From IMG/VR virus record IMGVR_UViG_3300046697_000246, positions 1 through 64,000 of that record: 64,000 nucleotides of DNA; one strand, written 5' to 3'. The notes beneath the pieces are model-generated. The model was given only the letters and a program-made list of their open reading frames with translations, was not told where the DNA came from and did not search any database. Position 1 is the stretch's first letter. Every line of letters starts with the position of its first letter. This stretch comes from a virus. The position numbers and the translations under genes were made by a program. Shown here one piece after another: positions 33,501 through 62,540 of the stretch.

Positions 33501-36500
33501 ATTTGCCAGCCACGCGGTTGATCATGTCACCGACGAGTCGCGGGTCGGCGAACAGACCGGCATTGACCTTTTGCGCCATCATTTCATCTGGCGTGAGTTT
33601 GTCCGGGTGCTTTGCAGCCTCGAACATCAGGTCGCGGACGCGCGGGCGAACAACGTCGTTGATCTGCTTCAACAACTGCTCGCGGATGACGCCGGAAACC
33701 TGCTTTTTCGTCTCCGCCGATACACCATCCAAATCAATGTTGTCTTGGATGTTTTTCAGATAAGCATCCAGCACGCGCTGAACCTCGGCATCGGGCTGTT
33801 TCGCCAGTTCTGTGATGCTGATGCGTGTATCCACCGGCTTGACCTTGGCCTGTTGGAAGCGCAAGCCTTTGAAATAACGCTCGGCGACGGAGCGCGCCAG
33901 CTTGACGGTGACGGGATCATACCCAGCCCATTCCTCGCGCATCCGTGCCCATTTCTCGAAGTTCGGCAGCTTCAATCCGGCCTCAATCTGCTCCGGTGTC
34001 GGCAGTTCACCCGCTTCGTAGCGGGCGTCAAGCTCGGCTATGGCATCGGCGTTGCCGGAAACCTCATTGCGCGCCGCCTGCTTGCCGGCCTCGATTTCGC
34101 CAGTCTCAACCGCCCGTTGAATTGCGGCTGTGATTTTGTCCTTGTTTGCGTCCGTGACCATCAGGCGCAACTTTTCCAGCGCGGACATCTTCTCTCCGGC
34201 CGGCGGCTCTTGGACGCCGTATTTCTTCAAAGATTCGAGGATGGTGTTCAATTCCTCTTGGAACAGGGCATTTTTCTCCATCTTGCCCGGTGAAGTCTTG
34301 GCCATACTCAACTTCTGCTGGACGGCGCGATACAGCCGGTCGCTCGCCGTCGCTTGATCGGCGGCAATCAGCTTGTTCAGGTCGGCTTCCATGCTCGGAT
34401 TGTCCTTGAGCATCTTCGCAATCTCGGCTTCGGTGAAGAATCCACGGAAATGCTCGACCAGCCGCTTGAAAAACGTCTCGTAAGCGCGCCCACCGAACGC
34501 CAGAGCGTAGGTCTTTTGCAGGAACACCGGGAGATTGGCCGCGACGGTGAGCAAATCCTTCTGGATGCCTTGAACGGAGCGCAACATCCAACCGCGCCAT
34601 GACGATTCACCGGATGAAATACCGATCAACTGGTTCGCCACGTCCTGCGACATGATTTTATACCAGCCGCCGTCGGGAGAGACGTTGTAATTGATGAACC
34701 GGACGAGTGCGGACGAATAGGCCGGATCTCCGCCGGGCGAATTCTGCTGCTGGATGGCCTGCGTCAACTCCTCAATCAGCTTGCTCCCCTCGGCATCGTG
34801 GTTGAACCCGTCCGGGGTGAGCATGGCGACGTTTTCCTCGTGCGGCTCGACGGGGAGCTTCAGGGAATTGATGAAAGCCAGTGCGCGGGCATCGCCTTGG
34901 CGCTTCTGCGCGGGTTGCAACAGGTCTTTGCCGAGCACCTTGTAATCGTTCCCGGCAATCTGCGTCTTGATGCCGTCATCTTGGTTGTCCGGCTCGGATT
35001 CGTCCGGCGGATTGGTCGAATACTTCGGTTCGCCTTGTCCCGTCAATTCCCCTTGAGATTTTGAGTATTCCGCCAAGGCGTCGGCCATTACATTGCGAGC
35101 GTGTTCGACATCCTTGAAGAACCGGCTGGAACCATATTTTCGCTGATTCAGCCAGTCCATGATGCCGTTCATCCACTTCACCATTTCAGAAACAACCTTC
35201 TGGAAAGTGGATGGTGCTTTTTGCGCGAAGCGTTGCCAGAAGGCAGGCTCGGTGATTTGGTCACCAAGTAAATCCGCCAGCGTTTCTTCCTCAATATCCT
35301 CCGGCTTGTAATACTGACCGTATTGTTTTTCCTGTCTCTGGCGCGATGCGGCCAAGTCATCTTTCAAAGCAGACTGAACCTCGGCATACAAATCAGGACG
35401 CTGAACCTTCATCGCGTGAAGCAGTTCATGTGCTGCCGGCCTAATCCACGGGTGAGGATCGTCAGCATTTACGAACAGAACGTCAGGTCGCGAAGGCAGA
35501 AATATCCCGCCACGGCTTTCGCCTTGGATGTTATCCCGGAAGAAAACGATCCTTTTACCAAATAGTTGTGCAAATCCATCAACTCCTCCCTTGAGAAGTT
35601 CCAACAACTGTGGATCGTTTGGTCTGACAGCAACAAGAGAATCTCCTCTGGTGTAGCGCGGGTCTTTTGTGGTAACTGCTCGCCTTGCTGATTCGACAAG
35701 GTTGGCATCAATGCTTGATTCATGGTCATCGTAACGGCCTTTCGGTTCGTTTGGTTCATTGGTTGAAAATTTGGGCGATTCCGGCGGTATCGGCGGTTGC
35801 TGCGGCGCGGCGGGTTGCGCGGCCTGCTGCACCTGATTCAAAATGTCGTTCGCCTCTTGCGGCTTCATCGCGTTGATTTGCGCCTCTGTGTAGCCGCGCG
35901 CCTTCAAATCAACCGTCATCTGTTTTGTGATGAGCAGCGGAACTTTGACACCGCCTTTCGGAATTGGCGGAGCCGATTTCGGCCTTTCTACCGGCTCATC
36001 TCCGTTCCAAATATCCGCCATGTCGCGGGCGTTTTCTTCAGTAGCCCCACCGTGGGCAATTTTTCCAGTCCTTGAATCTGTAACATCCCAAGCGCCAGAT
36101 TTGTTTTGAGACGCAACGAAGCGTTTTCCAAGCGGTGCTTCTTTTTGAGTGACATCAATGCCTGTAAAATCATTCACGGCTTTCACTGATAACGCAATCA
36201 ACTTTTTGAAAACAGCCGCCTCCTTCGGGGTCAATCCTTGCGGAAGAATGCCCTTTGTAATGTAATCGCCAAAGCTCCACCCTTCCGCTTTGAAATTGTC
36301 CATCTTCTGAATGAAGGACTCTGAACTGAAAGTGGCGCGTTCTTCTGGTGTCAATTCTTCCGCAACCAACTCCTCCATCATGCCGGTGACTTTTTCGTTG
36401 TCGCCAGCGTCAGCAGCTTTTTGAAGAAAGTCCTCAACGGCCTTGTTTTCAATCGCGTCCAAGCCGGATTCTTTTTGCAGCCTTGCACCCTCTTGAACGG

Positions 36501-36696
36501 CTTGATAGAGCGTTCTCCCTTTTGGATCGCGCCAAGTCTTGGCATCCAGCCCCAGCAAGCGGATGGAATTCTCAAGGTCTGGTAGGGTGTTATTGTTCCT
36601 GAAAAAAGCCACATAAGAGCGCGGCTCGCCAATGAATCCAACCAGCCGCTTCCAGGTGGCGGCACTTTTATTGGGACAGACAATGTTGACTGGCAT
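30580..36696 (-). CDS. large internal virion/ejection (polyvalent) protein with zincin metallopeptidase-like domain
   Basis: 2038 aa; AAHELLH HEXXH plus EETLAD; KFSTN/KYSTN linkers; Arg-rich C-terminus. Confidence 0.75.
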   Translation of the reverse strand: MPVNIVCPNKSAATWKRLVGFIGEPRSYVAFFRNNNTLPDLENSIRLLGLDAKTWRDPKGRTLYQAVQEGARLQKESGLDAIENKAVEDFLQKAADAGDNEKVTGMMEELVAEELTPEERATFSSESFIQKMDNFKAEGWSFGDYITKGILPQGLTPKEAAVFKKLIALSVKAVNDFTGIDVTQKEAPLGKRFVASQNKSGAWDVTDSRTGKIAHGGATEENARDMADIWNGDEPVERPKSAPPIPKGGVKVPLLITKQMTVDLKARGYTEAQINAMKPQEANDILNQVQQAAQPAAPQQPPIPPESPKFSTNEPNEPKGRYDDHESSIDANLVESARRAVTTKDPRYTRGDSLVAVRPNDPQLLELLKGGVDGFAQLFGKRIVFFRDNIQGESRGGIFLPSRPDVLFVNADDPHPWIRPAAHELLHAMKVQRPDLYAEVQSALKDDLAASRQRQEKQYGQYYKPEDIEEETLADLLGDQITEPAFWQRFAQKAPSTFQKVVSEMVKWMNGIMDWLNQRKYGSSRFFKDVEHARNVMADALAEYSKSQGELTGQGEPKYSTNPPDESEPDNQDDGIKTQIAGNDYKVLGKDLLQPAQKRQGDARALAFINSLKLPVEPHEENVAMLTPDGFNHDAEGSKLIEELTQAIQQQNSPGGDPAYSSALVRFINYNVSPDGGWYKIMSQDVANQLIGISSGESSWRGWMLRSVQGIQKDLLTVAANLPVFLQKTYALAFGGRAYETFFKRLVEHFRGFFTEAEIAKMLKDNPSMEADLNKLIAADQATASDRLYRAVQQKLSMAKTSPGKMEKNALFQEELNTILESLKKYGVQEPPAGEKMSALEKLRLMVTDANKDKITAAIQRAVETGEIEAGKQAARNEVSGNADAIAELDARYEAGELPTPEQIEAGLKLPNFEKWARMREEWAGYDPVTVKLARSVAERYFKGLRFQQAKVKPVDTRISITELAKQPDAEVQRVLDAYLKNIQDNIDLDGVSAETKKQVSGVIREQLLKQINDVVRPRVRDLMFEAAKHPDKLTPDEMMAQKVNAGLFADPRLVGDMINRVAGKSAIRNLLPKVSDLVKKILATPTADQAGMKAEFMRQLVGKLGVPPEQAAAAWKVMDSALTARLKLARESAMKEAVRTMTPAEIATMPPGDSKLWNRISQFFNAGGTDTGQLLSRVAALRGWNVPSPEEVEKLRGLVSKIQSLQTVSPAERARIQADTMSTDKDKAAEIERRNGERTAINTSEISQLTRRLAGEWAKFTKPLSADPRKAIPPFSWFNPTDAGRNTSKAVIEFTTANLLAKWGFPVRLLLHTQFQYLTLIATRPPAMAWELIGSNAKAGRPLDIYQNVSKAYSEAASQWIQSMGPGLRQARAQMAGRGKQQNIDRMMTGINALERAELASKEYYAKGDYSRAAMTGFIAQWKYAIRVVSALDAFQGEEVEFQELRHQFFVEMAKNGKTRAESEMAWNGNFGDMKKEWALALIDSGRTFAEDGKKAPNTELAEAADYLVKERMYQKMELMGLPSDAMRAYILRQRMSQAWQSPPAAGSLGGTVSKMMQSARQFSVKHNLPFIPTYFSQAIGNGINFHGRLTPAYKLFLGDVSKEGVGTHATNETDLDRKHNVIMAVFGSLVGSTVVLMILNHKLKVQLKYPTDKKDRDRFIEEGHKVGTVEWLHDDGTFTPFSMTVGPFSLIAPYVAGAGAAAGLADARAAQQKNADAAADAKGLARSPIPHNYVADTLAVAGAAVWNSILGGSTAAGAVSGYSEFGVPNARKTAAALASPLLPLVPMYQEVSRMMGVSMDKNMASVFDYLVPLPTSGARLVNSLGDPVRTPNDAQRIIQAITAGSYPFPVSPGESAVNQADSAAYQAMIVSGFRPPSINGAKGYDIGGTMRPMTAAELDKYTELRGQYLKANLAQLGSSATPQQAKAAYQQANAQALAAVGVQVPARVGKAAPAATAARYTPAGGRSKPRRVSLGRRTSAARLHYATPKIRISKLRRARPSSFRISHRAPKLKRPRLTLARHHAPRLRLHRPRLTF

Positions 36697-44300: not shown

Positions 44301-44687
44301 GTGGCTGAAGACGCATACGGAAATTATCAGGCTGGATTGTCGGACAACGTGGATTATGTGACGCCACAATCAGGCGCGCCAGTCCAAACCGGAACTGGAT
44401 CGCCGACTGCCAACACGCCTGTTTCGCCAGTTTATCTGGATTCAGCCAACAATAACATCTGGATCAATCCGTCTTTGACGACAAATGGATGGGTTTTGTC
44501 CACCAGTGGCGGCGGGGGAAGCGTTCAGGTGATGAGCAGCAACGCCGCAAACCCGAACACGGCTTCTGTTTCGCCAGACAATCCGACGCTCGGCGCAATT
44601 TATTATCAAACCGCGTCTGTGACGCCCTACAACATCTGGATTTGGGACACGGCTGGTCGCGTCTGGGTGCAATTTTCCGCTCCGTAA
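44301..44687 (+). CDS. small tail-fibre-associated protein
   Basis: Two repeats of P..P..(Y/G)..Y...N.W.W typical of fibre modules. Confidence 0.55.
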   Translation: MAEDAYGNYQAGLSDNVDYVTPQSGAPVQTGTGSPTANTPVSPVYLDSANNNIWINPSLTTNGWVLSTSGGGGSVQVMSSNAANPNTASVSPDNPTLGAIYYQTASVTPYNIWIWDTAGRVWVQFSAP

Positions 44688-44692
44688 AATTT

Positions 44693-47665
44693 ATGAAAAT
44701 AACATCATTCGTCTTTCTTGCCTTTATCGCCAGTCTTTTCACCGTGTTTGGGCAACCTTACAGGCCGACGGCATACACGACCAACACGGCGGCTGCCGCA
44801 GACGCCCATGTGCGGGGCATTGTCGTTTCAAACGCGCAGTCGGCGAACTATGCGACCAGCGCGGCCTCGGCTGCGGTTGCGGGGGCGGCGGGCTTGGCGA
44901 CGAATCTTGTCCCGCCGATTGCGAACCTGATTTACACCAACATTGGGAATTTGAGCATCGGCACAAACATCTCGACGCACGCAAACTTCACGTTGAATAA
45001 CGCCACGGGTGACAAGACGACCAGCGGCAGCGAGACGGCGGCGGGCGGGTTTATCGGCGGGGCGTCCACGGCGACGAATGCGCTGGGATTTACTAGTCTC
45101 GGCACGACCAACATCTTCGAGTTCGGAAATTATGCGGCACCGCAGGGTGAATTTCTTGACACCACGGCTGGCAGTCGCGATGCGCACAATTTGAATAACT
45201 GGGGATCGCTTTGGCGGATGACTGGAACTCAATCCAGCCAGAGCGGAAACTTCTATTCCGGCATTGATGATACTGGAAACAATTTCAATAATGAGGGATT
45301 CGTGTATGGGGTTTATCCGCTTTACGGAGACTGGTATTTCAACGGCTACACCACGGCAACCGTGTTTCCGACGAATATAATTTCTTTCAAGTGGAACCTT
45401 TACACCGCTAATCCTGAAAACATCCTGCGGATGTATGGGGCGCAGTATTTTGAAGCCCCGGCCAGTTTGCGGCCAAATGATGCCAGTTATCCCAATGGCT
45501 ACACCGTCTCCACACTGATTCCCTTCGTGGGCGGCTCGGCGTCGGCGATGGATGATTTGCCGCCTTCGCCCACCGCCGTGGCGAACAATATGCCTCTGCC
45601 CATTTTCCGCTTCATGGCGGATGCAGGCAACACGGCGCAGATGACCAACTGGGTTCAATCCGAAATCACCAACACGCTTCCCCGGATTTCCACCGTCCAT
45701 AATTTTCTGACGAACAATGGCGTGACCACCGTTGCCTTTGTGGACGGCTACTGGCAGGCGGCGCACCGGGATTCGGGCGGGGGCATCGTCTGGGATACCA
45801 ATCAATTTCCCAGCGGAATGCCGTGGTTGGCCAACTGGCTGCATACCAACGGCTGGAATTTTGAACTGGCGGATTATTACCTTGGCGGCTACTCGAACGA
45901 AGTCAGTTCCATTATTTTTGGCGGGAGCGCAAATTATGTGATGCTGACTCCCAACACCATCCAGCGCGATATTGCACGGATCCATTCATGGGGCGTTGAT
46001 GGTTTCCGCGCCGAAGATTCAGAACTTGGATCTGGATACCAGCAGCAGATGGTGTTGCAACTGTCCGCCGCCTGCGTTGCGCCGGGCGGAAGTGTTTTCA
46101 ACGACATCGTGAACCAACCCTATCCGCACCCGATGTATTCAAGCGTGCTCCTGCAAAACCCGCCAAACATGAACTGGTCAAGCTGGGTCAACACTGTTGG
46201 AAATGACGGAATCTCCTATTTCCAGCCCGCGTCGCAGACCGTCCAGTTCCAGATTGATATGTGGAATTTCCGGGTGGACTGGACGAATTATGTCCCCGGC
46301 ACTTCGCGCGGGCATTATGTGGATGTGTCAACCTTCAGCGGAGGCGGGTGGGACCCGCCCGTCGGCGATGCTCATATTGTCCTGTCCAGCGCGGCGATGA
46401 TGTTTTCTTCCCTGAACTTCTGGGGCGCAACCAACGATTCCATCGCCGCCAGCTTCAGCAACTCCGTTCTGTCGAACACGAATTGGATTTCCGTCTGGCA
46501 CGATCCGCTGTTTGCCCACGCGCAAAAGGTTTATGACGGCGGGCTGCTCACCACGTCCGTCTGGTCACGGGCATTGTCAACCGGCGGCGCGGCAGTGCTG
46601 ATGGTGAACGAGACGAACACCCAGCCGATGAGCGTGCAATTCGGCGCGCTCGGAATGTCACCGGCGCTCACCACGTTTGACGTGTTCGATTGCTGGTCGA
46701 ATCAGGACTTGGGAAACTTCACGGGCGGCTTCACGAACAGCATCGGTTTTCAAGATTGCGGACTGTATGTGGTCACGCCGGTCAGTTCCATTTCCGCCTC
46801 GTCCCTAAACAACAGCGCGGGCAATCCGGCCAGCCTGACCAACGCGGCCAACTCCTTCTCCGGCACCTTCACCGGCAACGGGAGCGGGTTGACTGGCGTC
46901 AAAGTGGCTGACACGAATATCACCGGGACAATCACAGTGACAAACGGCAACGTCGGCATCGGGACGACGACGCCACTATCAAAATTGGAAGTGGCAGATA
47001 GTCAAAGATGGTCATTGAGTGAAGACCCGAACAATTACTACTTGAACTTAGTCCGAGATATTACATCAGGCAATGTTCGTTGGTCTTTTGACCAAAAAAA
47101 TGCGGGTTTTGATTATGGTCGGGTTCTTACTTTTACAACGGGTAAGATTGGTATAGGTGGAGAATTGAATCCTGCTTCAAATATAAGCGTTTCGGGTAAT
47201 TTATCTGTTGGTGATTCAACTTATACAACCACTGCGGCTCCAACAGGAGGGGCAATAATTCAAGGCAACGTCGGCATCGGGACGAATGCTCCCGACTCTT
47301 TGCTGCACGTCGCTGGCAACGGTCACTTTAACGGCACCGTCACCGCCAGCGGGTTTGCGTCGACGATTACCGTCATGCCCTCAATCACAAACTGGGTGGA
47401 CATGAGCAGTCAGGTTCAACTCATCACGGAGACGACCACGAACATCACACTGCTCGGTTTCAGCAACCTTGTGGCATCCGTGGTCAACACTTGCATCCTT
47501 GAAGTGACCAACTCCACGGCCACGGCAGCGGCAGTTACCCTGTCACCCGCTTTCCACATCGGCGTAAATTCAACGAACTGCCTGTGGATTCCCGCCGGTA
47601 AAGAAGGCCGGATATTTCTTGATTACATAGACCAAACCAACGCCATGACCACTTTATTCCAATGA
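44693..47665 (+). CDS. signal-peptide-bearing tail fibre/spike-like protein with GH27 alpha-galactosidase-like domain
   Basis: VDGYWQ..RD..G.IVWD..QFPSGM.WLANWLH, WGVDGF and melibiase C-terminal VWSRALSTG..AVLMVN; GNGSGLT and GNVGIGT fibre repeats. Confidence 0.75.
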   Translation: MKITSFVFLAFIASLFTVFGQPYRPTAYTTNTAAAADAHVRGIVVSNAQSANYATSAASAAVAGAAGLATNLVPPIANLIYTNIGNLSIGTNISTHANFTLNNATGDKTTSGSETAAGGFIGGASTATNALGFTSLGTTNIFEFGNYAAPQGEFLDTTAGSRDAHNLNNWGSLWRMTGTQSSQSGNFYSGIDDTGNNFNNEGFVYGVYPLYGDWYFNGYTTATVFPTNIISFKWNLYTANPENILRMYGAQYFEAPASLRPNDASYPNGYTVSTLIPFVGGSASAMDDLPPSPTAVANNMPLPIFRFMADAGNTAQMTNWVQSEITNTLPRISTVHNFLTNNGVTTVAFVDGYWQAAHRDSGGGIVWDTNQFPSGMPWLANWLHTNGWNFELADYYLGGYSNEVSSIIFGGSANYVMLTPNTIQRDIARIHSWGVDGFRAEDSELGSGYQQQMVLQLSAACVAPGGSVFNDIVNQPYPHPMYSSVLLQNPPNMNWSSWVNTVGNDGISYFQPASQTVQFQIDMWNFRVDWTNYVPGTSRGHYVDVSTFSGGGWDPPVGDAHIVLSSAAMMFSSLNFWGATNDSIAASFSNSVLSNTNWISVWHDPLFAHAQKVYDGGLLTTSVWSRALSTGGAAVLMVNETNTQPMSVQFGALGMSPALTTFDVFDCWSNQDLGNFTGGFTNSIGFQDCGLYVVTPVSSISASSLNNSAGNPASLTNAANSFSGTFTGNGSGLTGVKVADTNITGTITVTNGNVGIGTTTPLSKLEVADSQRWSLSEDPNNYYLNLVRDITSGNVRWSFDQKNAGFDYGRVLTFTTGKIGIGGELNPASNISVSGNLSVGDSTYTTTAAPTGGAIIQGNVGIGTNAPDSLLHVAGNGHFNGTVTASGFASTITVMPSITNWVDMSSQVQLITETTTNITLLGFSNLVASVVNTCILEVTNSTATAAAVTLSPAFHIGVNSTNCLWIPAGKEGRIFLDYIDQTNAMTTLFQ

Positions 47666-55826: not shown

Positions 55827-55870
55827 AAATGTTAAGTGATTTTCACTTCGGCTTATCAGCTATGTTAGCC
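55818..55870 (+). repeat. left boundary site (attI-like or decayed attC)
   Basis: GCTTATC-AGCTAT-GTTAGCC; GTTAGCCGTCAC (55864-75) complements GTGACGGCTAAC (56575-86); no intact AAC arm. Confidence 0.6.
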
Positions 55871-56157
55871 GTCACTAGCTGGCTCTTTGGCGGGTAGCCT
55901 GATGCCTCGTCACATACACGCTGCATCCATTCCGCCAATGTCAGATTGTGCAGCCGTGCCATTCGCACATACCAGTTCTTGCGCGCCATCACGACGCGCA
56001 GGTGGATGTGTCCTGTGGCAGCTACGCTGTCATTCAGCGGACGACCAGCCCCGCGTCCTAGGTCGGCGGTTTTAGCGCCACGGGGCCGGTCGTGAGATTC
56101 TTCGTGGCATCGGACGCATACGTCCGAGTCTTTGCCGTGTTCGCATTTGTGGGCCAT
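55843..56157 (-). CDS. cassette gene: RHH-like regulator, paralog of 1835..2050
   Basis: Shared GRPL.D.VAATGHIHLRV..ARK.WYVR.ARL.N.TLAEWMQ..CD..S.YPPK. Confidence 0.7.
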   Translation of the reverse strand: MAHKCEHGKDSDVCVRCHEESHDRPRGAKTADLGRGAGRPLNDSVAATGHIHLRVVMARKNWYVRMARLHNLTLAEWMQRVCDEASGYPPKSQLVTANIADKPK

Positions 56158-56158
56158 A

Positions 56159-56404
56159 TTATTTCAGCAGCTTGGCGACTTCGGAGGCGATGCGGCTATT
56201 GTGCGGCTCGCCGATATTGTCAGCCGTCCACCATCCACGGCGCGAGGCTCGGCAGTCGCCCGGCGCGCAGCCGTATCCGCACTTGCATTGCGGATCGGAA
56301 TGATTGACGTGGGTTGCTCCGGTAGCAGCCTCGATCTTGCTGACGATTTTGCGGGACAGGAATCCGTCGTGGCATCCGAAGATATATTCGCTTGAGGTTG
56401 TCAT
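56159..56404 (-). CDS. cassette gene: Cys-rich hypothetical protein
   Basis: CKCGYGC..C; downstream of the cassette promoter. Confidence 0.6.
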   Translation of the reverse strand: MTTSSEYIFGCHDGFLSRKIVSKIEAATGATHVNHSDPQCKCGYGCAPGDCRASRRGWWTADNIGEPHNSRIASEVAKLLK

Positions 56405-56579: not shown

Positions 56580-56669
56580 GGCTAACAAATCGGTGCAGCC
56601 AATGCCGGTTGGCGCTCTCAGCCAAGTCCGGGCGTCACTGGCCCGGCATGGCTGACCTCTGCGTTGGGT
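56580..56669 (+). repeat. attC-like site 1
   Basis: GGCTAAC..CAGCCAATGCCGG..CCGGCATGGCTG..GTTGGGT. Confidence 0.85.
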
Positions 56670-56780
56670 GCAGAAAAGTTTCATGCGGATTCTCCATGCG
56701 CTTGCGGGCGTTTGCCGCTGCGCCGAGTTTGCCAAGTCTTGAGGCGTTTCCTTTGTGAAACCTGCCATGTCTAGCGGTGA

Positions 56781-56802
56781 TTATTATATCAGCCTGTTGG
56801 GC
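56781..56802 (+). repeat. second attI-like simple site
   Basis: TATCAGCCT-GTTGGGC; GTTGGGCGGCACA (56796-808) complements TGTGCCGCCCAAC (57262-74); no hairpin arm upstream. Confidence 0.55.
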
Positions 56803-56835
56803 GGCACAGCGCACGCGCACTGTGCCGCGTGAGTT

Positions 56836-57282
56836 TTATTTGTTTCGGGTAGCTTCAAGGATTGGCAGGTTGGCTTCGGTCGGCACATAGACCACGGTTT
56901 TATCCGTGCCTTGCGCGGCCACGTCGTTGATCCAGAGGTAGCGGAGATACGCTTCGTTGTTTTTCAGCGATTCGCCGATTATCTGGTTTGCTTTTGCGAC
57001 ACCACCAGCGCGGATTACTTCCGCTTGCGCCAGCAGTTCCGCCGATTCCATTTTGGCCTTCGCTTCGGCCACGGCCACTTCTTTTGCGGACTGAGCGTGT
57101 GCCAGCATTGCCTGGCCGAGTGCGCGGCTCGCATAGATGTTGTATTGAGGATACGCCCACATTGCGCCGAAGATTACGACGCCGATTGCCACGATTGATG
57201 CGACGATCCAGCCCGCGTAGTTTGGTTCACCATTTTCTTTCATTGTTGTGTGTCTTTCGATTGTGCCGCCCAACAACCGCAT
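56836..57282 (-). CDS. cassette gene: membrane-anchored SPFH-like coiled-coil protein
   Basis: Transmembrane helix, EAKAKMESA..AEVIRA.GVAKANQIIG.SL..YLRYLWI..VVYVPTEANLPILEA. Confidence 0.7.
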   Translation of the reverse strand: MRLLGGTIERHTTMKENGEPNYAGWIVASIVAIGVVIFGAMWAYPQYNIYASRALGQAMLAHAQSAKEVAVAEAKAKMESAELLAQAEVIRAGGVAKANQIIGESLKNNEAYLRYLWINDVAAQGTDKTVVYVPTEANLPILEATRNK

Positions 57283-57376
57283 GGAGCCAATGCGGGTTGG
57301 ACGCGCAGTTTATTTCGTTGAGGCTCCAGATTGTTTCACGGTTTCAGTCCCGCATGGCTCATGCGGAGCGTTAGAC
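57268..57376 (+). repeat. attC-like site 2
   Basis: GCCCAAC..CCGCATGGAGCCAATGCGGG..CCCGCATGGCTCATGCGG..GTTAGAC. Confidence 0.9.
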
Positions 57377-57516
57377 AGCCGGGCGGAGCGTTTTGCTTTA
57401 CGGCGAGCTTTTTGAAGTGCGGCCTGTTGCGCTGGCGTGATTATCCGCGTGCGCTTACGTTTCTTCGGGCCTTGCGCGCCCCACCGCTTGAAATCTTCTG
57501 ACGTGTAGGTTTTCAA
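57310..57516 (-). CDS. cassette gene: small basic protein
   Basis: K/R-rich; reads into attC2. Confidence 0.55.
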   Translation of the reverse strand: MKTYTSEDFKRWGAQGPKKRKRTRIITPAQQAALQKARRKAKRSARLSNAPHEPCGTETVKQSGASTK

Positions 57517-57836
57517 AATTGGTGCCGGTCTTTATGGGTTTCATCCCAATGTTCTTTTGCGTGGCAGTTACCGCAAAGTAATTCGCATTTAGAAATCTCA
57601 ATCTTAACCTTTTCTAAAGACTTTGTTTGCGCTAAAAGCCTGTTCACTCTATCCACTTTCGTTGATGGGTCAATATGGTGGAACTGCAAACAGGCCGGAT
57701 GAGATTCACCGCACCTTTTACAGCCTGACAATTTAACACCCAACACATACGCCCTTAATTTAGCTCTGTGAGCGGACTGCCGCTTACGCTCACTCTCTTT
57801 GTAGAGATGTAAATTTTCACGCCCGATGTAACTCAT
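57513..57836 (-). CDS. cassette gene: small zinc-binding HNH endonuclease
   Basis: CKRCG..LQFHH.DP..KCELLCGNCH..EH. Confidence 0.85.
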   Translation of the reverse strand: MSYIGRENLHLYKESERKRQSAHRAKLRAYVLGVKLSGCKRCGESHPACLQFHHIDPSTKVDRVNRLLAQTKSLEKVKIEISKCELLCGNCHAKEHWDETHKDRHQF

Positions 57837-57844
57837 AAATTTAT

Positions 57845-58160
57845 TGCGGGTCTTTCCCCGCTGTCATCACCTTCGGACGATCAATCCAATCCACGGCCAC
57901 GGTGCGGGCCTGTCCCAGCTTCGGTTGCTGCTCCACTTCCGGCATTGTTGATGCCAGTTCCTCACGCGGGGCTATGAGTCGGAACCGCCGGAGGCTTTCG
58001 CCAAATTATCTCCGGACTTTCACGCCGTCCGGCTGGCGGCTCTTACGTTAGACAGATTCCGCGCTCTGCCGTGCTTTCGTGCGGCTCAGTTTATTTTATA
58101 CTCACTTCACTGGAGCCGACTCCGTTTTTCACAAGTCGCACTGCCGGTTTCCCGCGTGCA
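57845..58160 (-). ncRNA. putative structured ncRNA upstream of the HNH gene
   Basis: No convincing ORF; several stems with GAAA/GUGA loops on the minus strand; promoter-like TTGATT-N16-TATAAA at 58167-58194. Confidence 0.6.
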
Positions 58161-58233
58161 AGATTATTTATATCATATCCCCGTTACGAATCAAACTCTT
58201 TTTTGATTTATTTTCGTGAATCGCAAACCGGCT

Positions 58234-58330
58234 GTCTAACAACGCGCTGGAACCAACGCCCATTATCGCTGTCAGTCCGCTACGCGGGTCATTCCTCAAG
58301 CTGGGCGTGGTTCAGCTTGAGGCGTTAGAC
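58234..58330 (+). repeat. attC-like site 3
   Basis: GTCTAAC..GCTGGAACCAACGCCCA..TGGGCGTGGTTCAGC..GTTAGAC. Confidence 0.9.
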
Positions 58331-58590
58331 GGCTCGGCGAGCGCCTCGCGCGCTATGTCGCCAAGTCCGAAACTGCGGATGCTTTGCGATTCTTCGGACT
58401 CGATGATTTCTTCGAGTGCTTTTTTGTAGCGCTTCACATTCTCACCGAGCGCAAAAATTTGTCTGGCATCGGCTCGAATCAGCCTGTCAGATTCAAGCAG
58501 TTCGCCGATGAGTTGCAGTTTTGACACCTTTTTGTATCGTGCGGCGACTGTAATTTGTTCGCCGAATGTTTGTTCGCTCATAGAGTTCAT
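58312..58590 (-). CDS. cassette gene: coiled-coil hypothetical protein
   Basis: YKKALEEI...IAREAL; stop lies inside attC3. Confidence 0.6.
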   Translation of the reverse strand: MNSMSEQTFGEQITVAARYKKVSKLQLIGELLESDRLIRADARQIFALGENVKRYKKALEEIIESEESQSIRSFGLGDIAREALAEPSNASS

Positions 58591-58811
58591 TTGTTCCTTT
58601 TCACGAGGCGTTCAGCCTCGAACTTGGTCAGCCCTATTGCCAGCTTGGTCACTTTTCCGAACTTGGTCACTTTCACCACCATCCAAGCGTTTCCTACCGT
58701 CGAGCATGGTTTTATTTGAAGTTTCATATTTTCAATTCGCCGTCTAACAACCGCATGAAGCCAATGCGGTTGGGCGTCTCTGGTTTGACGGGAAGTCTCT
58801 GGTGATTTCAT
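58587..58811 (-). CDS. cassette gene: hypothetical protein
   Basis: Start inside attC4 loop; ATGA-coupled to the next gene. Confidence 0.55.
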   Translation of the reverse strand: MKSPETSRQTRDAQPHWLHAVVRRRIENMKLQIKPCSTVGNAWMVVKVTKFGKVTKLAIGLTKFEAERLVKRNK

Positions 58812-58847
58812 GGTTTGGTGTCCGCGTCGCTTATGCGGACGTTAGAC
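58742..58847 (+). repeat. attC-like site 4
   Basis: GTCTAAC..CCGCATGAAGC..GCTTATGCGG..GTTAGAC. Confidence 0.9.
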
Positions 58848-58857
58848 GGCTTCAGTA

Positions 58858-59232
58858 TCACCAGTCTATGAGTATCGTGTGTTCACCGGCTTCAAGCAGC
58901 CCTTTGGCATGGAGGTCATTTGCCACCATTTGCAGGTCAGGGTAGAAGTTTCTATCCCACCAAAGTCCCAGGCTGTAGTCCGTTCGCCCATCGGCCAGCG
59001 CTTTTTTTGGATCTCTTGCGAGCCACGCCGCGAAGCTCACGCCCTTTTCTTCATGGTTCACTTTTTCCGGCACAGTTGTTCGCTCGTGGTCACTTGCTTC
59101 GGATGGCACGTCTATTACCACCGTTCCGCGACTCATGCAGCCATCCTGTTGCTGTAGATTGTAGGGGCGTCCGTAGGTTTTCACCACGAGCGCATCCCAT
59201 TCCGACACTTCGATCACTTGTTTTGTTTTCAT
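58858..59232 (-). CDS. cassette gene: conserved-looking phage hypothetical protein
   Basis: YGRPYNLQQQDGC..WWDRNFYP..ANDLH..G..I.IDW. Confidence 0.7.
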   Translation of the reverse strand: MKTKQVIEVSEWDALVVKTYGRPYNLQQQDGCMSRGTVVIDVPSEASDHERTTVPEKVNHEEKGVSFAAWLARDPKKALADGRTDYSLGLWWDRNFYPDLQMVANDLHAKGLLEAGEHTILIDW

Positions 59233-59253
59233 ATTTGTTTATCGCTGTTCGCC

Positions 59254-59352
59254 GTCTAACAACTCACTCCAGCCAACCGGCGTTACGACTTGCCGTCCGC
59301 CTTCGCGGGCGACGCGCCTCGGTCGCCGGTGGCTGAGTTCGAGGCGTTCTCC
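59254..59352 (+). repeat. attC-like site 5
   Basis: GTCTAAC..ACTCCAGCCAACCGGCG..CGCCGGTGGCTGAGT..GTTCTCC. Confidence 0.9.
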
Positions 59353-59576
59353 GGCACGAGTCCTTTGTATTTATGGAGTTGGTAGCGGAGGTGTTGGATT
59401 AGCGCGGCGCAGTTTTTCCCATCATCACCAAAGTCTCGTAAGGCGGCTTCGGCTTGCCACATTTGAGCGGTTGCCTGTGCGATGTGAGACATGACGTGTT
59501 CGCGTGCCGGAGAACAAGTCGCTGCACCCGCAACTGCCGCTGCCCGTTTCCGATTCTTGGCTTTTATTTTGGTCAT
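59283..59576 (-). CDS. cassette gene: hypothetical protein
   Basis: Starts in attC6, stops in attC5. Confidence 0.55.
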   Translation of the reverse strand: MTKIKAKNRKRAAAVAGAATCSPAREHVMSHIAQATAQMWQAEAALRDFGDDGKNCAALIQHLRYQLHKYKGLVPENASNSATGDRGASPAKADGKS

Positions 59577-59636
59577 AAAGTTTCAGTGCCGCCCACGGTC
59601 GCGCTCGGCGGCAGTGGGGTGAGCTTCACGTTCGGC
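59509..59636 (+). repeat. attC-like site 6
   Basis: GGAGAAC..GCTGCACCCGCAACTGCCGC..GCGGCAGTGGGGTGAGC..GTTCGGC. Confidence 0.85.
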
Positions 59637-59640
59637 GTCT

Positions 59641-60288
59641 TCATTTTCGCGCCTCCGGTTTATCGTAGGGCAGTCCGACGAAAGCAAAGACGGCTTCCTC
59701 GGATTCCATCGCTCGCGCTTCGTCACCCCGCGAGAATCCCGCACCGTATGGATTCCATTTCCATCCGCGTTCCTGCGCGGACATGCAGATGCGCGTGTTG
59801 CTGTCCGCCGGGCCGGTTCGGCAGACGAGATAGTTGTGCCAGTTCTCCGCCGTCGCCGCGAAGAAGTCCACGGGCAGCCCGGTGGCACGGTGGCGCATCA
59901 GTTTATTTTTCGCGCCATACATTTCCGATCCGTTCACATTCTTGCGCCGTTCCAGCACGCCGGATTTTTCGAGCGCGGCGATTACTTCGTCCGCGAGATT
60001 TACCGTGATGCTGGCGAACATATCGGCAGGGTCTTGGCGCTCTTCGGTTTTTCCGATGTAGAGGATTTCAGCATCGCCCACGGTGGTCTTTCGCCGGCGC
60101 AGTGAGCCAGCGACGACGAGGCGCTCACAGACTGGCTTGAGCGCCGCGCAGAGTTCCGCAGCCACCTTCATTCCAACGGCGTTGTCGAAGCGAGGTTTCT
60201 GTCCAGACGCCGAACACATCGCTGCACCCGCAATGACTGCTGCGGTCACAGTTTTCGGCGATGGTGGCGTTTTTGGCGCAGCAGTCAT
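59641..60288 (-). CDS. cassette gene: minimal DNA polymerase X (palm and thumb)
   Basis: VAGSLRRRK.TVGDAEIL, PVDFF, RTGP and SEEAVFAFVGLPY..PEAR PolX motifs. Confidence 0.85.
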   Translation of the reverse strand: MTAAPKTPPSPKTVTAAVIAGAAMCSASGQKPRFDNAVGMKVAAELCAALKPVCERLVVAGSLRRRKTTVGDAEILYIGKTEERQDPADMFASITVNLADEVIAALEKSGVLERRKNVNGSEMYGAKNKLMRHRATGLPVDFFAATAENWHNYLVCRTGPADSNTRICMSAQERGWKWNPYGAGFSRGDEARAMESEEAVFAFVGLPYDKPEARK

Positions 60289-60309
60289 GGGGTGAGCTTT
60301 GCGTTCGGC
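60209..60309 (+). repeat. attC-like site 7
   Basis: GCCGAAC..GCTGCACCCGCAATGACTGCTGCG..CGCAGCAGTCATGGGGTGAGC..GTTCGGC. Confidence 0.9.
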
Positions 60310-60527
60310 TGCTTTATTGCTTGGGCATTCCAGTTGCGGCGGGCGGTGTGGCGAGTCCACGCCATTTTTCCGCTCCGACCGCATTTGGGACATAGCAGCC
60401 AGATCAGTCCGCCGCCACCGTCCCATATCGGGAGCGTTCCACAGTTACACGGCAGCAGCCGAACAAGCCTGCCGGAGCCAACCGTGGTTGGCCGTCTCTT
60501 TTTATTCGCTACGGATTTCTTTTTCAT
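60285..60527 (-). CDS. cassette gene: Lar (restriction alleviation)-like zinc finger
   Basis: LLPCNCG...CPKCG...ARRNWN. Confidence 0.65.
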   Translation of the reverse strand: MKKKSVANKKRRPTTVGSGRLVRLLPCNCGTLPIWDGGGGLIWLLCPKCGRSGKMAWTRHTARRNWNAQAIKQPNAKLTP

Positions 60528-60568
60528 AAAGTCTCTAGTCCACGGCGGCGCATCAGGCACCGTTCGGC
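60458..60568 (+). repeat. attC-like site 8
   Basis: GCCGAAC..GCCTG..GCCAACCGTGG..CCACGGCGGC..CAGGC..GTTCGGC. Confidence 0.8.
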
Positions 60569-61095
60569 TTCTGATACACGATCCAGTGTGTTCGGGTGTT
60601 TCCGACCCGCTGACCAAATAGCGGCTTCTGGTCGGTGAGCGACAAAACGGTTGTCAGCTTCACCCGATGTTCATTCCATTTGAAAACGAGCGTTCCCAGA
60701 GGACACAGGACGCGGAAGCATTCACGGAAGCCGGCCGAGATTTCGTTGCGCCAGTCGAGCGGAAGGCTTCCGTATTTCTTTATCGTCCTTCCGTTCGGCC
60801 CGCACCAGGTATGCGGCGGGTCGAATACGACGAGCGCGAAAGTGCAGTCAGGGAATGGCAGTTCCTTGAAGTTTGCCAGCACGTCGGGATTTACGACGAT
60901 GCTTGCCGGTTTCGGGCCGGTGTGGTCTATAAGCGTTTCGCGGCGCTTATCCACGAACAGAGCGCGAGGGTCTGATTTATCAAACCAGAACATCCGACTC
61001 CCGCAGCACGCATCCAGCACAGAAGCCGAACAAGTCCTTGGAGGCAAAGACGCCACGCCTTGCGCTCCATCATTGATTTCAATTTGAGTATTCAT
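60553..61095 (-). CDS. cassette gene: SAM-dependent methyltransferase
   Basis: VLDACCGSRMFWFDK, FDPPH, ECFRVL..GTLVFKWNE. Confidence 0.85.
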   Translation of the reverse strand: MNTQIEINDGAQGVASLPPRTCSASVLDACCGSRMFWFDKSDPRALFVDKRRETLIDHTGPKPASIVVNPDVLANFKELPFPDCTFALVVFDPPHTWCGPNGRTIKKYGSLPLDWRNEISAGFRECFRVLCPLGTLVFKWNEHRVKLTTVLSLTDQKPLFGQRVGNTRTHWIVYQKPNGA

Positions 61096-61146
61096 TTTAC
61101 GTTCGAGGCGGCGCTGTCGGCGTCTTGCCTCAAGTCTGCGTTCGGC
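61025..61146 (+). repeat. attC-like site 9
   Basis: GCCGAAC..CTTGGAGGCAAAGACGCC..GGCGTCTTGCCTCAAG..GTTCGGC. Confidence 0.9.
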
Positions 61147-61544
61147 GAAATGAATTGCACCGGCAGCCCCATCTCGTTTGCGATGGCGATTTCACCCGCA
61201 ACGCCTTTTGATTCCTTCCAGCCGTCGAGTGTCAGCACGATCATCGCGCAGCACGCGGCGAGGATGGCGCGGTCATACGCCTGCCAGTATTCCCACCCCA
61301 GAGGCAGATCACCGGCCAGCGCAATTGGATGCGTGTGGCTGATAGGCGAGTAGATGTGCATTCCCTTCCGCATCAGTTCCGCCGCCGCCGCGTTGACGGC
61401 TCGGAAGCGTCCTTCCCGCACCGATGCGTCTGGGTGCGAGTATGGGGTTGCGAGATATACGAGCGTTTTCGCCGAACAAGCGGATGCAGGCAACAGCCGC
61501 TGGCCATCTGGTTTTTCAAGTGTTGATTCCATATTCAAAGTCAT
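61092..61544 (-). CDS. cassette gene: DUF1937 / nucleoside deoxyribosyltransferase-like protein
   Basis: VYLATPYSH, YSPISHTH, GWKESKGV.GEI. Confidence 0.8.
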   Translation of the reverse strand: MTLNMESTLEKPDGQRLLPASACSAKTLVYLATPYSHPDASVREGRFRAVNAAAAELMRKGMHIYSPISHTHPIALAGDLPLGWEYWQAYDRAILAACCAMIVLTLDGWKESKGVAGEIAIANEMGLPVQFISPNADLRQDADSAASNVK

Positions 61545-61583
61545 TTGGTCTTCGGCGGCTGTGCCTGATCCGCAGCGTTCGGC
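61471..61583 (+). repeat. attC-like site 10
   Basis: GCCGAAC..GCGGATGCAGGCAACAGCCGC..GCGGCTGTGCCTGATCCGC..GTTCGGC. Confidence 0.9.
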
Positions 61584-61590
61584 GGCATTT

Positions 61591-61839
61591 TCATTCGATG
61601 CAAACAATACGCTCGGAGCCGCATTCAGGACACACGAGTTTCCCGCCGGCCACGCATGGCATTCGTTCCTCTCCGCAGTTATGGCAGCCGTGATATTTTC
61701 CGCAGGCTTGTTCTACGCTCAACGTTGCCGCCGAACAAACCGTTGCAGATAATTCGCTCTGCGCCTTCTGTTCTCGCTGCTCTCGTCGGCGAGCAACGCG
61801 CGCATACACGAGGATGGATGTTGGGTCAAAGTCGCTCAT
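61591..61839 (-). CDS. cassette gene: small zinc-ribbon protein
   Basis: CHNC...CPECGS; starts in attC11. Confidence 0.6.
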   Translation of the reverse strand: MSDFDPTSILVYARVARRREQREQKAQSELSATVCSAATLSVEQACGKYHGCHNCGEERMPCVAGGKLVCPECGSERIVCIE

Positions 61840-61860
61840 ATCTGAACTTTCTCGTTAGCC
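61730..61860 (+). repeat. attC-like site 11
   Basis: GCCGAAC..GTTGCAGATA..TATCTGAAC..GTTAGCC. Confidence 0.75.
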
Positions 61861-62144
61861 ATCGGTTCGACATCCACGCCTTTCATTCCAAGAAACGCTT
61901 TTCCGTGGATTGGGCATACAAACATATCGAAGTGGTGCTTGTGACTTCGGACGCGCCACTCAGCCTTGTTCTCGCAGAGTTCGCGGTCAGCTATGACCAT
62001 ACACGTCCGCTGGCTAACCCGGCGCTGCTGCGAATCCGTGCCTCGCTTTACGGACAACGGCATCATCACCATTTCGCGGCACCATCCGGCACAGTAGCCG
62101 TCATCCGTCACCAGTTCTTTTTTGCATTTTGGACACGTTCTCAT
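61836..62144 (-). CDS. cassette gene: Cys-rich hypothetical protein
   Basis: CPKC..CAGWC..CPIH; starts in attC12, stops in attC11. Confidence 0.6.
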   Translation of the reverse strand: MRTCPKCKKELVTDDGYCAGWCREMVMMPLSVKRGTDSQQRRVSQRTCMVIADRELCENKAEWRVRSHKHHFDMFVCPIHGKAFLGMKGVDVEPMANEKVQI

Positions 62145-62210
62145 ATTCGTTATTTTCCTTTGCGCTCCACATCCGCCGCCGGCACGGATCGCAGAGCTTG
62201 GTCGTTAAGC
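62012..62210 (+). repeat. attC-like site 12 (199 bp, expanded coding loop)
   Basis: GGCTAAC..CTGCGAATCCGTGCC..GGCACGGATCGCAG..GTTAAGC. Confidence 0.8.
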
Positions 62211-62483
62211 CGCTAGCTTCAGTTTGTGGCAGTTTTTTATTTCCTCACAACATTGCGGACAAGTTATCGCTTGCGGTGGGACATTCTCCCAAGCGGATTG
62301 ATCTTGCTCATTTCCGGTCGCAGTTCCATCGAACGCTTGCCCGCAGATGGTAAATTCCGAATTGAGAGCACTTATCCGGTGGACAAATCCATCACCTGTT
62401 TTTCCGAAGCCCGTATTCTTTCGGGGCCGCGGCTTAACCCGTCGCTGCTGCGGACACGGCTTGGCGTCTTGGGATTTGCTCAT
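62205..62483 (-). CDS. cassette gene: zinc-binding hypothetical protein
   Basis: VH...TICG...ITCPQC; stop TAA lies in the core site of attC12. Confidence 0.6.
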   Translation of the reverse strand: MSKSQDAKPCPQQRRVKPRPRKNTGFGKTGDGFVHRISALNSEFTICGQAFDGTATGNEQDQSAWENVPPQAITCPQCCEEIKNCHKLKLAA

Positions 62484-62540
62484 AAGGTTTCTGGTTTGCC
62501 TGCGTCCCCATGTGCCGGGTCGCAGAGCGCGTCGTTCGGC
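62432..62540 (+). repeat. attC-like site 13
   Basis: GCTTAAC..CGCTGCTGCGGACACGGC..GCCGGGTCGCAGAGCG..GTTCGGC. Confidence 0.8.

Follow-up and report, generated by a model that had tools for sequence, protein, structure and literature searches.

An array of 13 integron attC sites and one hairpin-less core site lies between positions 55864 and 62540 of the window, the 64,000-nucleotide stretch analysed here, which comprises positions 1-64,000 of the 73,290-b IMG/VR virus record IMGVR_UViG_3300046697_000246 (completeness rating 95%). In these attC sites the top strand is the plus one, and the genes lie antisense to it on the minus strand, a trait of a whole group of phage arrays. The array is probably an integrase-less cassette array in which the bottom strand is the coding strand and each attC forms a 5' leader that overlaps the start of its gene. 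An initial annotation of this DNA had proposed that the attC sites double as coding sequence, and part of this stands: the sites do lie in the gene-sense strand, hold the stops of 8 of 14 upstream genes and supply the only possible start of at least four genes. Its proposal that each attC is a portable unit of its own was not retained, as the cassette consists of an attC and the following gene; it contributes the start region itself, and the stop of its gene is supplied by the neighbouring cassette.

The record codes for a large terminase subunit and a virion protein, and near-identical DNA is carried by metagenome runs from peat, permafrost and freshwater. The carrier is a peat phage of about 73 kb, with the array in its accessory-gene region, and its host is probably a member of the Verrucomicrobiota. 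Neither the integron-integrase family TIGR02249 nor the tyrosine-recombinase family PF00589 gave a match anywhere in the 73,290-b record. With 13 attC sites within 6 kb and no integrase in the record, the array is therefore a CALIN (cluster of attC sites lacking an integron integrase). It differs from a complete integron in having no intI gene and only the hairpin-less core site in the attI position.

Identity of the attC sites

The hairpins of the array are genuine attC sites of the integron type. When both arms of 12 candidates were aligned by hand, a single plus-strand architecture emerged. Its 5' arm opens with a 7-nt box whose last letters are AAC; roughly 5 unpaired nt come next, then 3 bp and one extra base, then 5-6 bp and another extra base, and finally a longer stem; after a variable loop, a mirror arm without extra bases ends in GTTNNNN. 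The 5' box is called R'' and the 3' box R', so that in the sense of the genes R' is the entry box and R'' the exit box of the hairpin. In a MAFFT alignment of 11 sites, positions G1, A5, A6, C7 and A23 were invariant and T15 and G16 nearly so. All 13 sites have 7-nt boxes carrying AAC and GTT and a spacer of 5 nt, and their extra bases fall at position 16 and at 22-24; the purine/pyrimidine pattern of the boxes is relaxed (GCCGAAC, GGAGAAC). In the attC geometry described in the sections of Nivina 2016 used here, the bases at 16 and at 23/24 are extrahelical and enclose a 6-bp stem, both on the arm that holds AAC in the top strand, and the length is 57-141 bp. Twelve of the 13 sites measure 90-131 bp, and attC11, at 199 bp, is outside that range. 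The same geometry was found in attC_aadA1 of plasmid R100 when read in the aadA1 sense.

A scanner was built on the rule NNNNAAC...GTTNNNN with a spacer of 5 nt, a first paired stretch of 3 bp, a second of 6 bp, and extra bases at 16 (between the two) and 23. The scanner returned 13 matches in the 73,290-b genome, of which 11 are within 56580-62540, all on the plus strand and with at most one mispair; ten dinucleotide shuffles gave 0-4 matches. As a control, attC_aadA1 was recovered and the aadA1 strand was called as its top strand. The sites attC7 (60458-60568) and attC10 (61730-61860) fit attC by hand alignment only. The exact arm pattern of attC1/3 had no match in 185,579 species genomes. 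The range 57268-62540 given for the array in the initial annotation does contain hairpins of attC type at the places indicated, and the array extends further left, to attC0 and the core site. An additional attC that had been placed near 58000 (probably 57979-58053) lacks canonical geometry.

The sites were numbered attC0 to attC12 for the present analysis, from left to right on the plus strand. The sites are:

55864-55870, plus strand: hairpin-less core site GTTAGCC in attI-like position at the top-strand 5' end of the array; complements the attC0 R'' box at 7 of 7 positions
56580-56669, plus strand: attC0; found by the scanner with 0 mispairs, G at 16 and A at 23
57268-57376, plus strand: attC1; found by hand alignment and scanner; present in viral contig L040 at 85% identity
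58234-58330, plus strand: attC2; stop of orf92a at 58312 in the L' arm
58742-58847, plus strand: attC3; ATG 58811 in the unpaired loop, in-frame ATG 58727 located 14 nt past R''
59254-59352, plus strand: attC4; the sole site with C at top-strand position 16; present in L044 at 89% identity
59509-59636, plus strand: attC5; three extra bases
60209-60309, plus strand: attC6; three extra bases, ATGA overlap at 60285-60288, ATG 60219
60458-60568, plus strand: attC7; irregular L box; present in L037 at 90% identity with both flanks different
61025-61146, plus strand: attC8; ATGA overlap at 61092-61095
61471-61583, plus strand: attC9; DUF1937 starts 61544 and 61532 inside
61730-61860, plus strand: attC10; ATGA overlap at 61836-61839
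62012-62210, plus strand: attC11; 199 nt, with a 133-nt loop that encodes a Cys4 zinc-ribbon-like peptide
62432-62540, plus strand: attC12, with which the complete sites end; the orf92b frame has no start codon other than ATG 62483

No attC fold was found to the left of the core site at 55864-55870, and no similarity was seen between the core site and the attI region of the Verrucomicrobiae integron (metagenome-assembled genome, MAG, G001) considered below.

The genes of the array, numbered or named after the open reading frame (ORF) list, are:

55843-56404, minus strand: two small genes of 104 and 81 aa in the first cassette (ORF list)
56836-57243, minus strand: 135-aa gene with one hydrophobic segment and a start outside attC1; relatives at 37 viral loci
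57310-57836, minus strand: 68-aa ORF, with its stop in the attC1 loop, and weak-HNH ORF (107 aa)
58312-59232, minus strand: orf92a, orf74 (or a 46-aa form) and orf124; no family matches
59283-59576, minus strand: orf97, or a 69-aa form from 59492 (ORF list)
59641-60288, minus strand: minimal PolX-like nucleotidyltransferase with Pfam thumb and palm domains
60285-60527, minus strand: 80-aa zinc-ribbon ORF, ZnR80 (ORF list)
60553-61095, minus strand: S-adenosylmethionine-dependent methyltransferase; 7,992 relatives
61092-61544, minus strand: DUF1937 / nucleoside deoxyribosyltransferase-like gene (Pfam E = 2.4e-22)
61591-62483, minus strand: orf82, orf102 and orf92b, Cys-rich small ORFs with weak codon scores (-0.03 to 0.03) that are above those of the overlapping plus-strand ORFs

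Polarity of the sites and of the genes

The extrahelical bases are on the plus-strand 5' arm in 13 of 13 sites. The ends of the array agree with this: along the top strand, 5' to 3', a hairpin-less site comes first and a complete attC last, which is the order attI-cassettes-attC. A third line of evidence is the X6 junction described below, which joins two plus-strand GTTRRRY sites. Read in the same way, attC_aadA1 of R100 has the opposite orientation relative to its gene. The methyltransferase relatives led to the MAG G001, whose attC sites are 88 nt long and share the G16/A23 type of the phage array, and which has an intI gene (357 bits, cut-off 265) that lies upstream of the attC top strands and on the opposite strand. 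This layout is canonical, and the strand call is therefore correct on a native integron.

The genes are on the other strand. The Pfam matches for PolX, DUF1937 and DUF5131 are on the minus strand, and every gene with family support runs antisense to the attC top strand, unlike the genes of canonical cassettes. Codon log-odds trained on the long genes of the phage are at or above 0 for 14 of 17 minus-strand ORFs and below 0.01 for all 10 overlapping plus-strand ORFs, nine of these being negative; the three Cys-rich ORFs at 61.6-62.5 kb score only marginally above their antisense partners. The coding strand of the phage is A-rich (AT skew). When oriented to the attC top strand, the skew ranges from -0.15 to -0.30 in all 10 phage arrays compared and from -0.05 to -0.11 in three arrays of bacteria. 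Of 42 attC sites, 25 have a hairpin ATG that opens at least 70 codons in the bottom sense, and 5 have one in the top sense. The extrahelical bases, Pfam matches, codon scores and AT skew together bear out the observation in the initial annotation that the cassette genes run opposite to the usual integron orientation. 

Stops and starts inside the attC sites

Eight of 14 genes end inside the next attC, and four more end no further than 11 nt from its entry box. The two stops outside any attC are at 56836, 166 nt from attC0, and at 58587, where orf92a comes directly next with no attC between. Three ATGA overlaps already pointed out in the initial annotation (60285-60288, 61092-61095 and 61836-61839) are all present inside attC sites; overlapping stops and starts are what a translationally coupled operon would show.

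Ten start codons had been assigned to attC sites in the initial annotation. Four of them are compelled to lie there, 60288 (or 60249/60219) of PolX, 60527 of ZnR80, 61544 (or 61532) of DUF1937 and 62483 of orf92b, these genes having no start codon outside an attC. The start at 61095 is supported by conservation. The starts 58811, 59576, 61839 and 62144 are ambiguous, with in-frame alternatives 7-16 nt past the attC. The start at 57282 was rejected: it is in a paired stem, and homologues match from residue 7 and mostly from about residues 24-36, so that ATG 57243 is the likely start. Viral contig L040 shares the leader and ATG 57243 of this 135-aa gene.

The 33 aligned relatives of PolX conserve KPRF-NAVGM and many of them begin with M-x-[DE]-KPRF. 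The window has SGQKPRF, in which KPRF follows R'' by 6 codons with no start codon between, and the only upstream in-frame starts (60219, 60249 and 60288) are all in attC6. In the viral contig L046 (73,024 b), PolX has its own start and no surrounding attC array. The Pfam match of DUF1937 begins at profile position 3, directly after the R'' codons, and all its possible starts are in attC9. In the methyltransferase the conserved core VLDACCGS comes right after R'', with GTG 61020 as an alternative start. Two divergent attC-linked relatives, L061 and L055, also have ATGAAT in the loop, in frame through the exit arm, and the attC-less relative L057 starts with MN only 13 residues before VLDACCGS. 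The conserved cores of PolX, DUF1937 and the methyltransferase, whose alignment the initial annotation had suggested, begin shortly after the attC box. In predicted RNA folds, the A of seven loop AUG codons is mostly unpaired (P = 0.54-1.00).

The same methyltransferase is found behind an attC with a loop start in L072, L061 and L055, which are binned to a Luteolibacter, a Limisphaerales and a Pseudomonadota MAG. These three may be prophages or mis-binned phage contigs.

attC-encoded N-termini

The predicted proteins share N-termini that are encoded by attC sites. In L037 a different body follows the 22 residues with which ZnR80 begins, and LAPATGSAS stands before a relative of PolX as well as before one of the methyltransferase. 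In attC11 the long loop and the exit arm encode 37-45 residues, zinc-ribbon-like with four Cys, that head seven otherwise unrelated predicted proteins, and P0242 has the orf102 body with another N-terminus. A codon-degenerate DNA pattern of the attC11 module had no match in viral contigs and matched one metagenome contig, L141, in which the module reads in frame into a UVR-like body lacking its own start; this match is biased by the pattern, in which ten codons are fixed. Such extensions, for which the initial annotation had proposed a search, are present on predicted proteins (L037, L141 and the seven proteins with the attC11 module). As for the motifs it had listed, attC-encoded N-termini do recur, and TCSP, MCSA, TCSA, ACSA and VCSA are merely the R'' box GTTCKSC in one frame. 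The likeness of these predicted N-termini could stem from conservation at the level of DNA.

Cassette history

Because R' is a hybrid in a linear array, the R'' box of a site should match the R' box of the previous site. The R'' box was therefore compared with the R' box of the previous site and with the R' box of its own site at 13 junctions. Six junctions were uninformative because the boxes are identical, and at 7 of the 7 informative ones R'' complements the previous R' better than its own; the R' box of attC4 (GTTCTCC), for example, complements the R'' box of attC5 at 7 of 7 positions. In one metagenome contig of run X6 a 30-mer equal to window 55834-55863 is followed directly by 57370. 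The difference of 1,506 bp is exactly two cassettes, joined at the G|TT of two plus-strand core sites. At 57368-57374, the R' box of attC1, contigs from four runs depart from the window sequence.

The same attC families are found beside unrelated genes in at least 11 other viral contigs and in one metagenome contig. The methyltransferase cassettes resemble one another from about 30 nt inside the upstream attC as far as the entry box of the downstream attC, which fits units composed of an attC and a gene. The position of the crossover at the gene-sense entry box, as given by the extra bases, the array ends and the X6 indel, means that a hairpin and the gene following it form one cassette.

Contigs of runs X6 and X8 are without exactly 322 nt (57527-57848, with a 7-nt ambiguity of the ends), nearly the whole weak-HNH ORF. 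This gene is therefore variable in presence, as a homing endonuclease would be. A form of attC10 with a loop shorter by 72 or 74 nt (window 61759-61832) occurs at depths of 3,513 and 168 in run X8, and presumably belongs to other, more abundant phages.

Proposed mechanism and alternative explanations

In the proposed mechanism the integron integrase of the host would fold the attC bottom strand and exchange cassettes at the R' box. Since the bottom strand is the coding strand, each cassette would consist of an attC and then a gene. The hairpin would be transcribed as the 5' leader of its gene. The preceding gene would end in the entry arm or loop of the hairpin, and the next gene would start in the loop or exit arm, or at most 24 nt after the hairpin. 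The attC-encoded N-termini would be translated, and a ribosome finishing the upstream gene may melt the stem and free the next start, which would couple the two genes. It is possible, if rather doubtful, that the array represents a phage-adapted type of cassette belonging to phages of integron-bearing soil bacteria. In such cassettes, with the bottom strand coding, the attC would supply the start and a translated N-terminal module (a zinc ribbon in one family), the host integrase would shuffle translation-ready genes, and modules would be swapped in frame at the exit box.

Several observations weigh against the interpretation of the array as cassettes that begin with an attC leader. In contigs of runs X5 and X6 foreign sequence is joined inside the attC5 R'' box at 59512 (GGAGAAC changed to GCCGAAC). 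This sequence has no match in the window, and a loose end at 59352 has no match in the loci compared. Relatives of PolX and of the methyltransferase have other attC arms directly upstream of the same body. Such junctions are at the R'' box, which should not recombine under plus-strand polarity. Together with the combination of one loop and exit arm with many bodies, they need top-strand recombination, homologous exchange between similar attC sites or cassettes that were built repeatedly. At position 16 of the bottom strand, 12 of 13 sites have C, where G is usual and accompanied by a distal T in the part of Nivina 2016 used here; 12 of 13 sites do carry the distal T, and the same C16 is found in the intI-linked array. 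Applied to a Vibrio phage record with a fragment of a chromosomal integron, the scanner found none of its attC sites, which have three extra bases, and it is therefore tuned to one attC type. A crude call of strand by longest ORF gave 27 inverted, 10 canonical and 14 ambiguous sites among 51 and is noisy. Concerning translation, five of the proposed starts have an in-frame alternative 4-16 nt past the attC, AUG 60288, 60219 and 62483 are paired in the RNA fold, as is AUG 57282, and the attC11 loop has no clear third-position bias in the one contig examined when the ten codons fixed by the pattern are set aside. No RNA run is among those listed as containing the array region, and two metatranscriptome runs from one study contain next to no words of it.

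One alternative is that the attC sites are recombination sites and 5' leaders only, with translation starting at or after the exit box and the upstream ATG codons being by-products of GC-rich open frames. Seven genes have starts 4-24 nt past R'' (57243, 58727, 59232, 59492, GTG 61020, TTG 61722 and 62000), 14 of 42 attC sites open at least 40 codons in the non-coding sense as well, and 3 of the 33 aligned PolX relatives are annotated from an internal Met, all of which is consistent with it, as is the codon pattern of the attC11 loop outside the ascertained motif. This explanation is nevertheless unlikely, because PolX, DUF1937, ZnR80 and orf92b have no start codon between R'' and the conserved sequence and the UVR-like body in L141 has none of its own. 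Moreover, the loop ATGAAT of the methyltransferase, with an open frame through the exit arm, is kept in three divergent contexts, and three of five cassettes with a downstream ATG keep an open in-frame loop ATG, for which chance was estimated at about 0.15 each.

Less likely still is canonical polarity, in which the minus strand would be the top strand, each attC would belong to the upstream gene, the N-termini would be swapped on recombination, as in the portable unit of the initial annotation, and the integrase would tolerate extra bases on the other arm. The eight genes that take their stop from the next cassette are more natural under this polarity, stops in the following attC being common in canonical cassettes, and in this respect they count against an attC leader. 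The gene bodies adjoin GTTRRRY as canonical cassettes adjoin the core site, one loop and exit arm is followed by eight different bodies, and the X5 and X6 junctions at the attC5 R'' box have been noted above. Some attC sites recombine their top strand at measurable rates, according to the sections of Nivina 2016 used here. Canonical polarity is nevertheless opposed by the extra bases on the plus-strand 5' arm at all 13 sites, by the plus polarity that the same attC type has relative to intI in the native integron and by the hairpin-less site at the left end of the array with a full attC at the right. The joining of two plus-strand GTTRRRY sites in the X6 indel and the extent of similarity among the methyltransferase cassettes, from about 30 nt into the upstream attC to the downstream entry box, likewise speak for cassettes that begin with an attC. 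That the hairpins are operon elements acting at the RNA level, in processing, stability or termination, and resemble attC sites by coincidence is very improbable. As RNA they do have fold energies of -34 to -71 kcal/mol, they stand between the genes of one co-directional block, and no Rfam family matched anywhere in the window at gathering thresholds. Against a coincidence stand the position-exact attC geometry, the complementarity of boxes across sites, the G|TT indel and the occurrence of the same type beside intI in a bacterial genome, and terminator-like sites are at the level of chance (21 against 17.9). The promoter scan was at chance level as well (7 against 6.8).

Neighbouring features

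The region 57837-58233 of the window is a 400-nt gap without ORFs inside one cassette. A minus-strand match of sigma-70 type (58238-58210) accompanies it, as does a hairpin at 57979-58053 that lacks canonical form and ends in GTTAGAC, and L037 shares 73 nt at 58171-58243. The gap may hold a cassette-borne promoter or a small RNA. The 104-aa ORF of the first cassette runs through the core site and has its stop 20 nt beyond. The neighbouring DUF5131 gene has no relatives in the viral contigs. Elsewhere in the window are an ORF of 2,038 aa on the minus strand (30580-36696) and a 1,058-aa protein (44489-47665) with alpha-galactosidase (melibiase) domains, which may be a tail-associated glycosidase.

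Relation to known systems

Reverse-orientation cassettes with their own promoter, such as toxin-antitoxin cassettes, also have the gene antisense to the attC top strand, and are single exceptions with long leaders. In the present case, in contrast, the whole array is inverted and the genes adjoin the attC sites. A bacterial likeness is the integron on contig C8 of the MAG G001, whose attC sites are of the array's own type (GCCGAAC AAG..., with top-strand G16 and A23) and which has the same methyltransferase family, also antisense. It differs in the presence of intI, in homogeneous attC sites of 88 nt and in mixed ORF directions, and its attC loops have in-frame stops in both senses, with the methyltransferase about 350 nt from its attC. 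This locus (G001:C8:176651-214639, comprising L077, L078, L135, L138 and L139) is a complete chromosomal integron, with intI at 176651-177613, at least 34 of the 88-nt attC sites distributed across more than 36 kb, and interspersed copies of another tyrosine recombinase.

CALINs have already been described in virulent and temperate phages, with orphan methyltransferase cassettes, and five of six tested phage attC sites were recombined by IntI1 (Qi et al. 2023, PMC9892861). The present array is like them in being a cluster of attC sites without integrase in a phage genome and in its methyltransferase cassette. The 17 CALINs of that study are defined by at least two attC sites, with one stated count of three, compared with 13 attC sites and a core site here. 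Their cassettes are co-oriented as in bacterial arrays, or mixed, and coding overlap, antisense genes and start codons are not mentioned in the sections of that paper used here (Qi et al. 2023, PMC9892861). Cassette translation has been described as shaping the expression of arrays. At attI1, the short ORFs ORF-11 and ORF-18 couple the translation of cassettes without an initiation region (Hanau-Bercot 2002 via PMC8876359). The likeness is a short ORF across a recombination site, and the differences are that it is in attI rather than attC, encodes a separate peptide and was shown experimentally (PMC8876359). Synthetic coding attC sites likewise combine a hairpin and a reading frame on the same DNA (Nivina et al. 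2020, PMC7439510). They were engineered, and the present array, with its predicted N-termini, would be a natural counterpart. In the literature on phage CALINs, inverted cassettes and start codons in attC sites, no whole array of this kind was found, although supplements might list orientations. The phage CALIN as such is already known; the present array adds the uniformly inverted polarity and the overlap of attC sites with the 5' ends of coding sequence.

Integron cassettes are taught as promoterless genes followed by an attC and read from the one promoter of the platform. In the present array and in no fewer than nine others from phages this plan is reversed, and the recombination site lies at the 5' end of the gene. 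The array is a test bed for how attC polarity is set and how cassettes are made, and it ties a group of peat phages to the integrons of Verrucomicrobia. If the overlap is real in the proteins themselves, natural DNA can combine structure-specific recombination sites with coding sequence, and the phages would be using the integrase of their host to reshuffle accessory genes such as the methyltransferase, PolX and the deoxyribosyltransferase-like enzyme.

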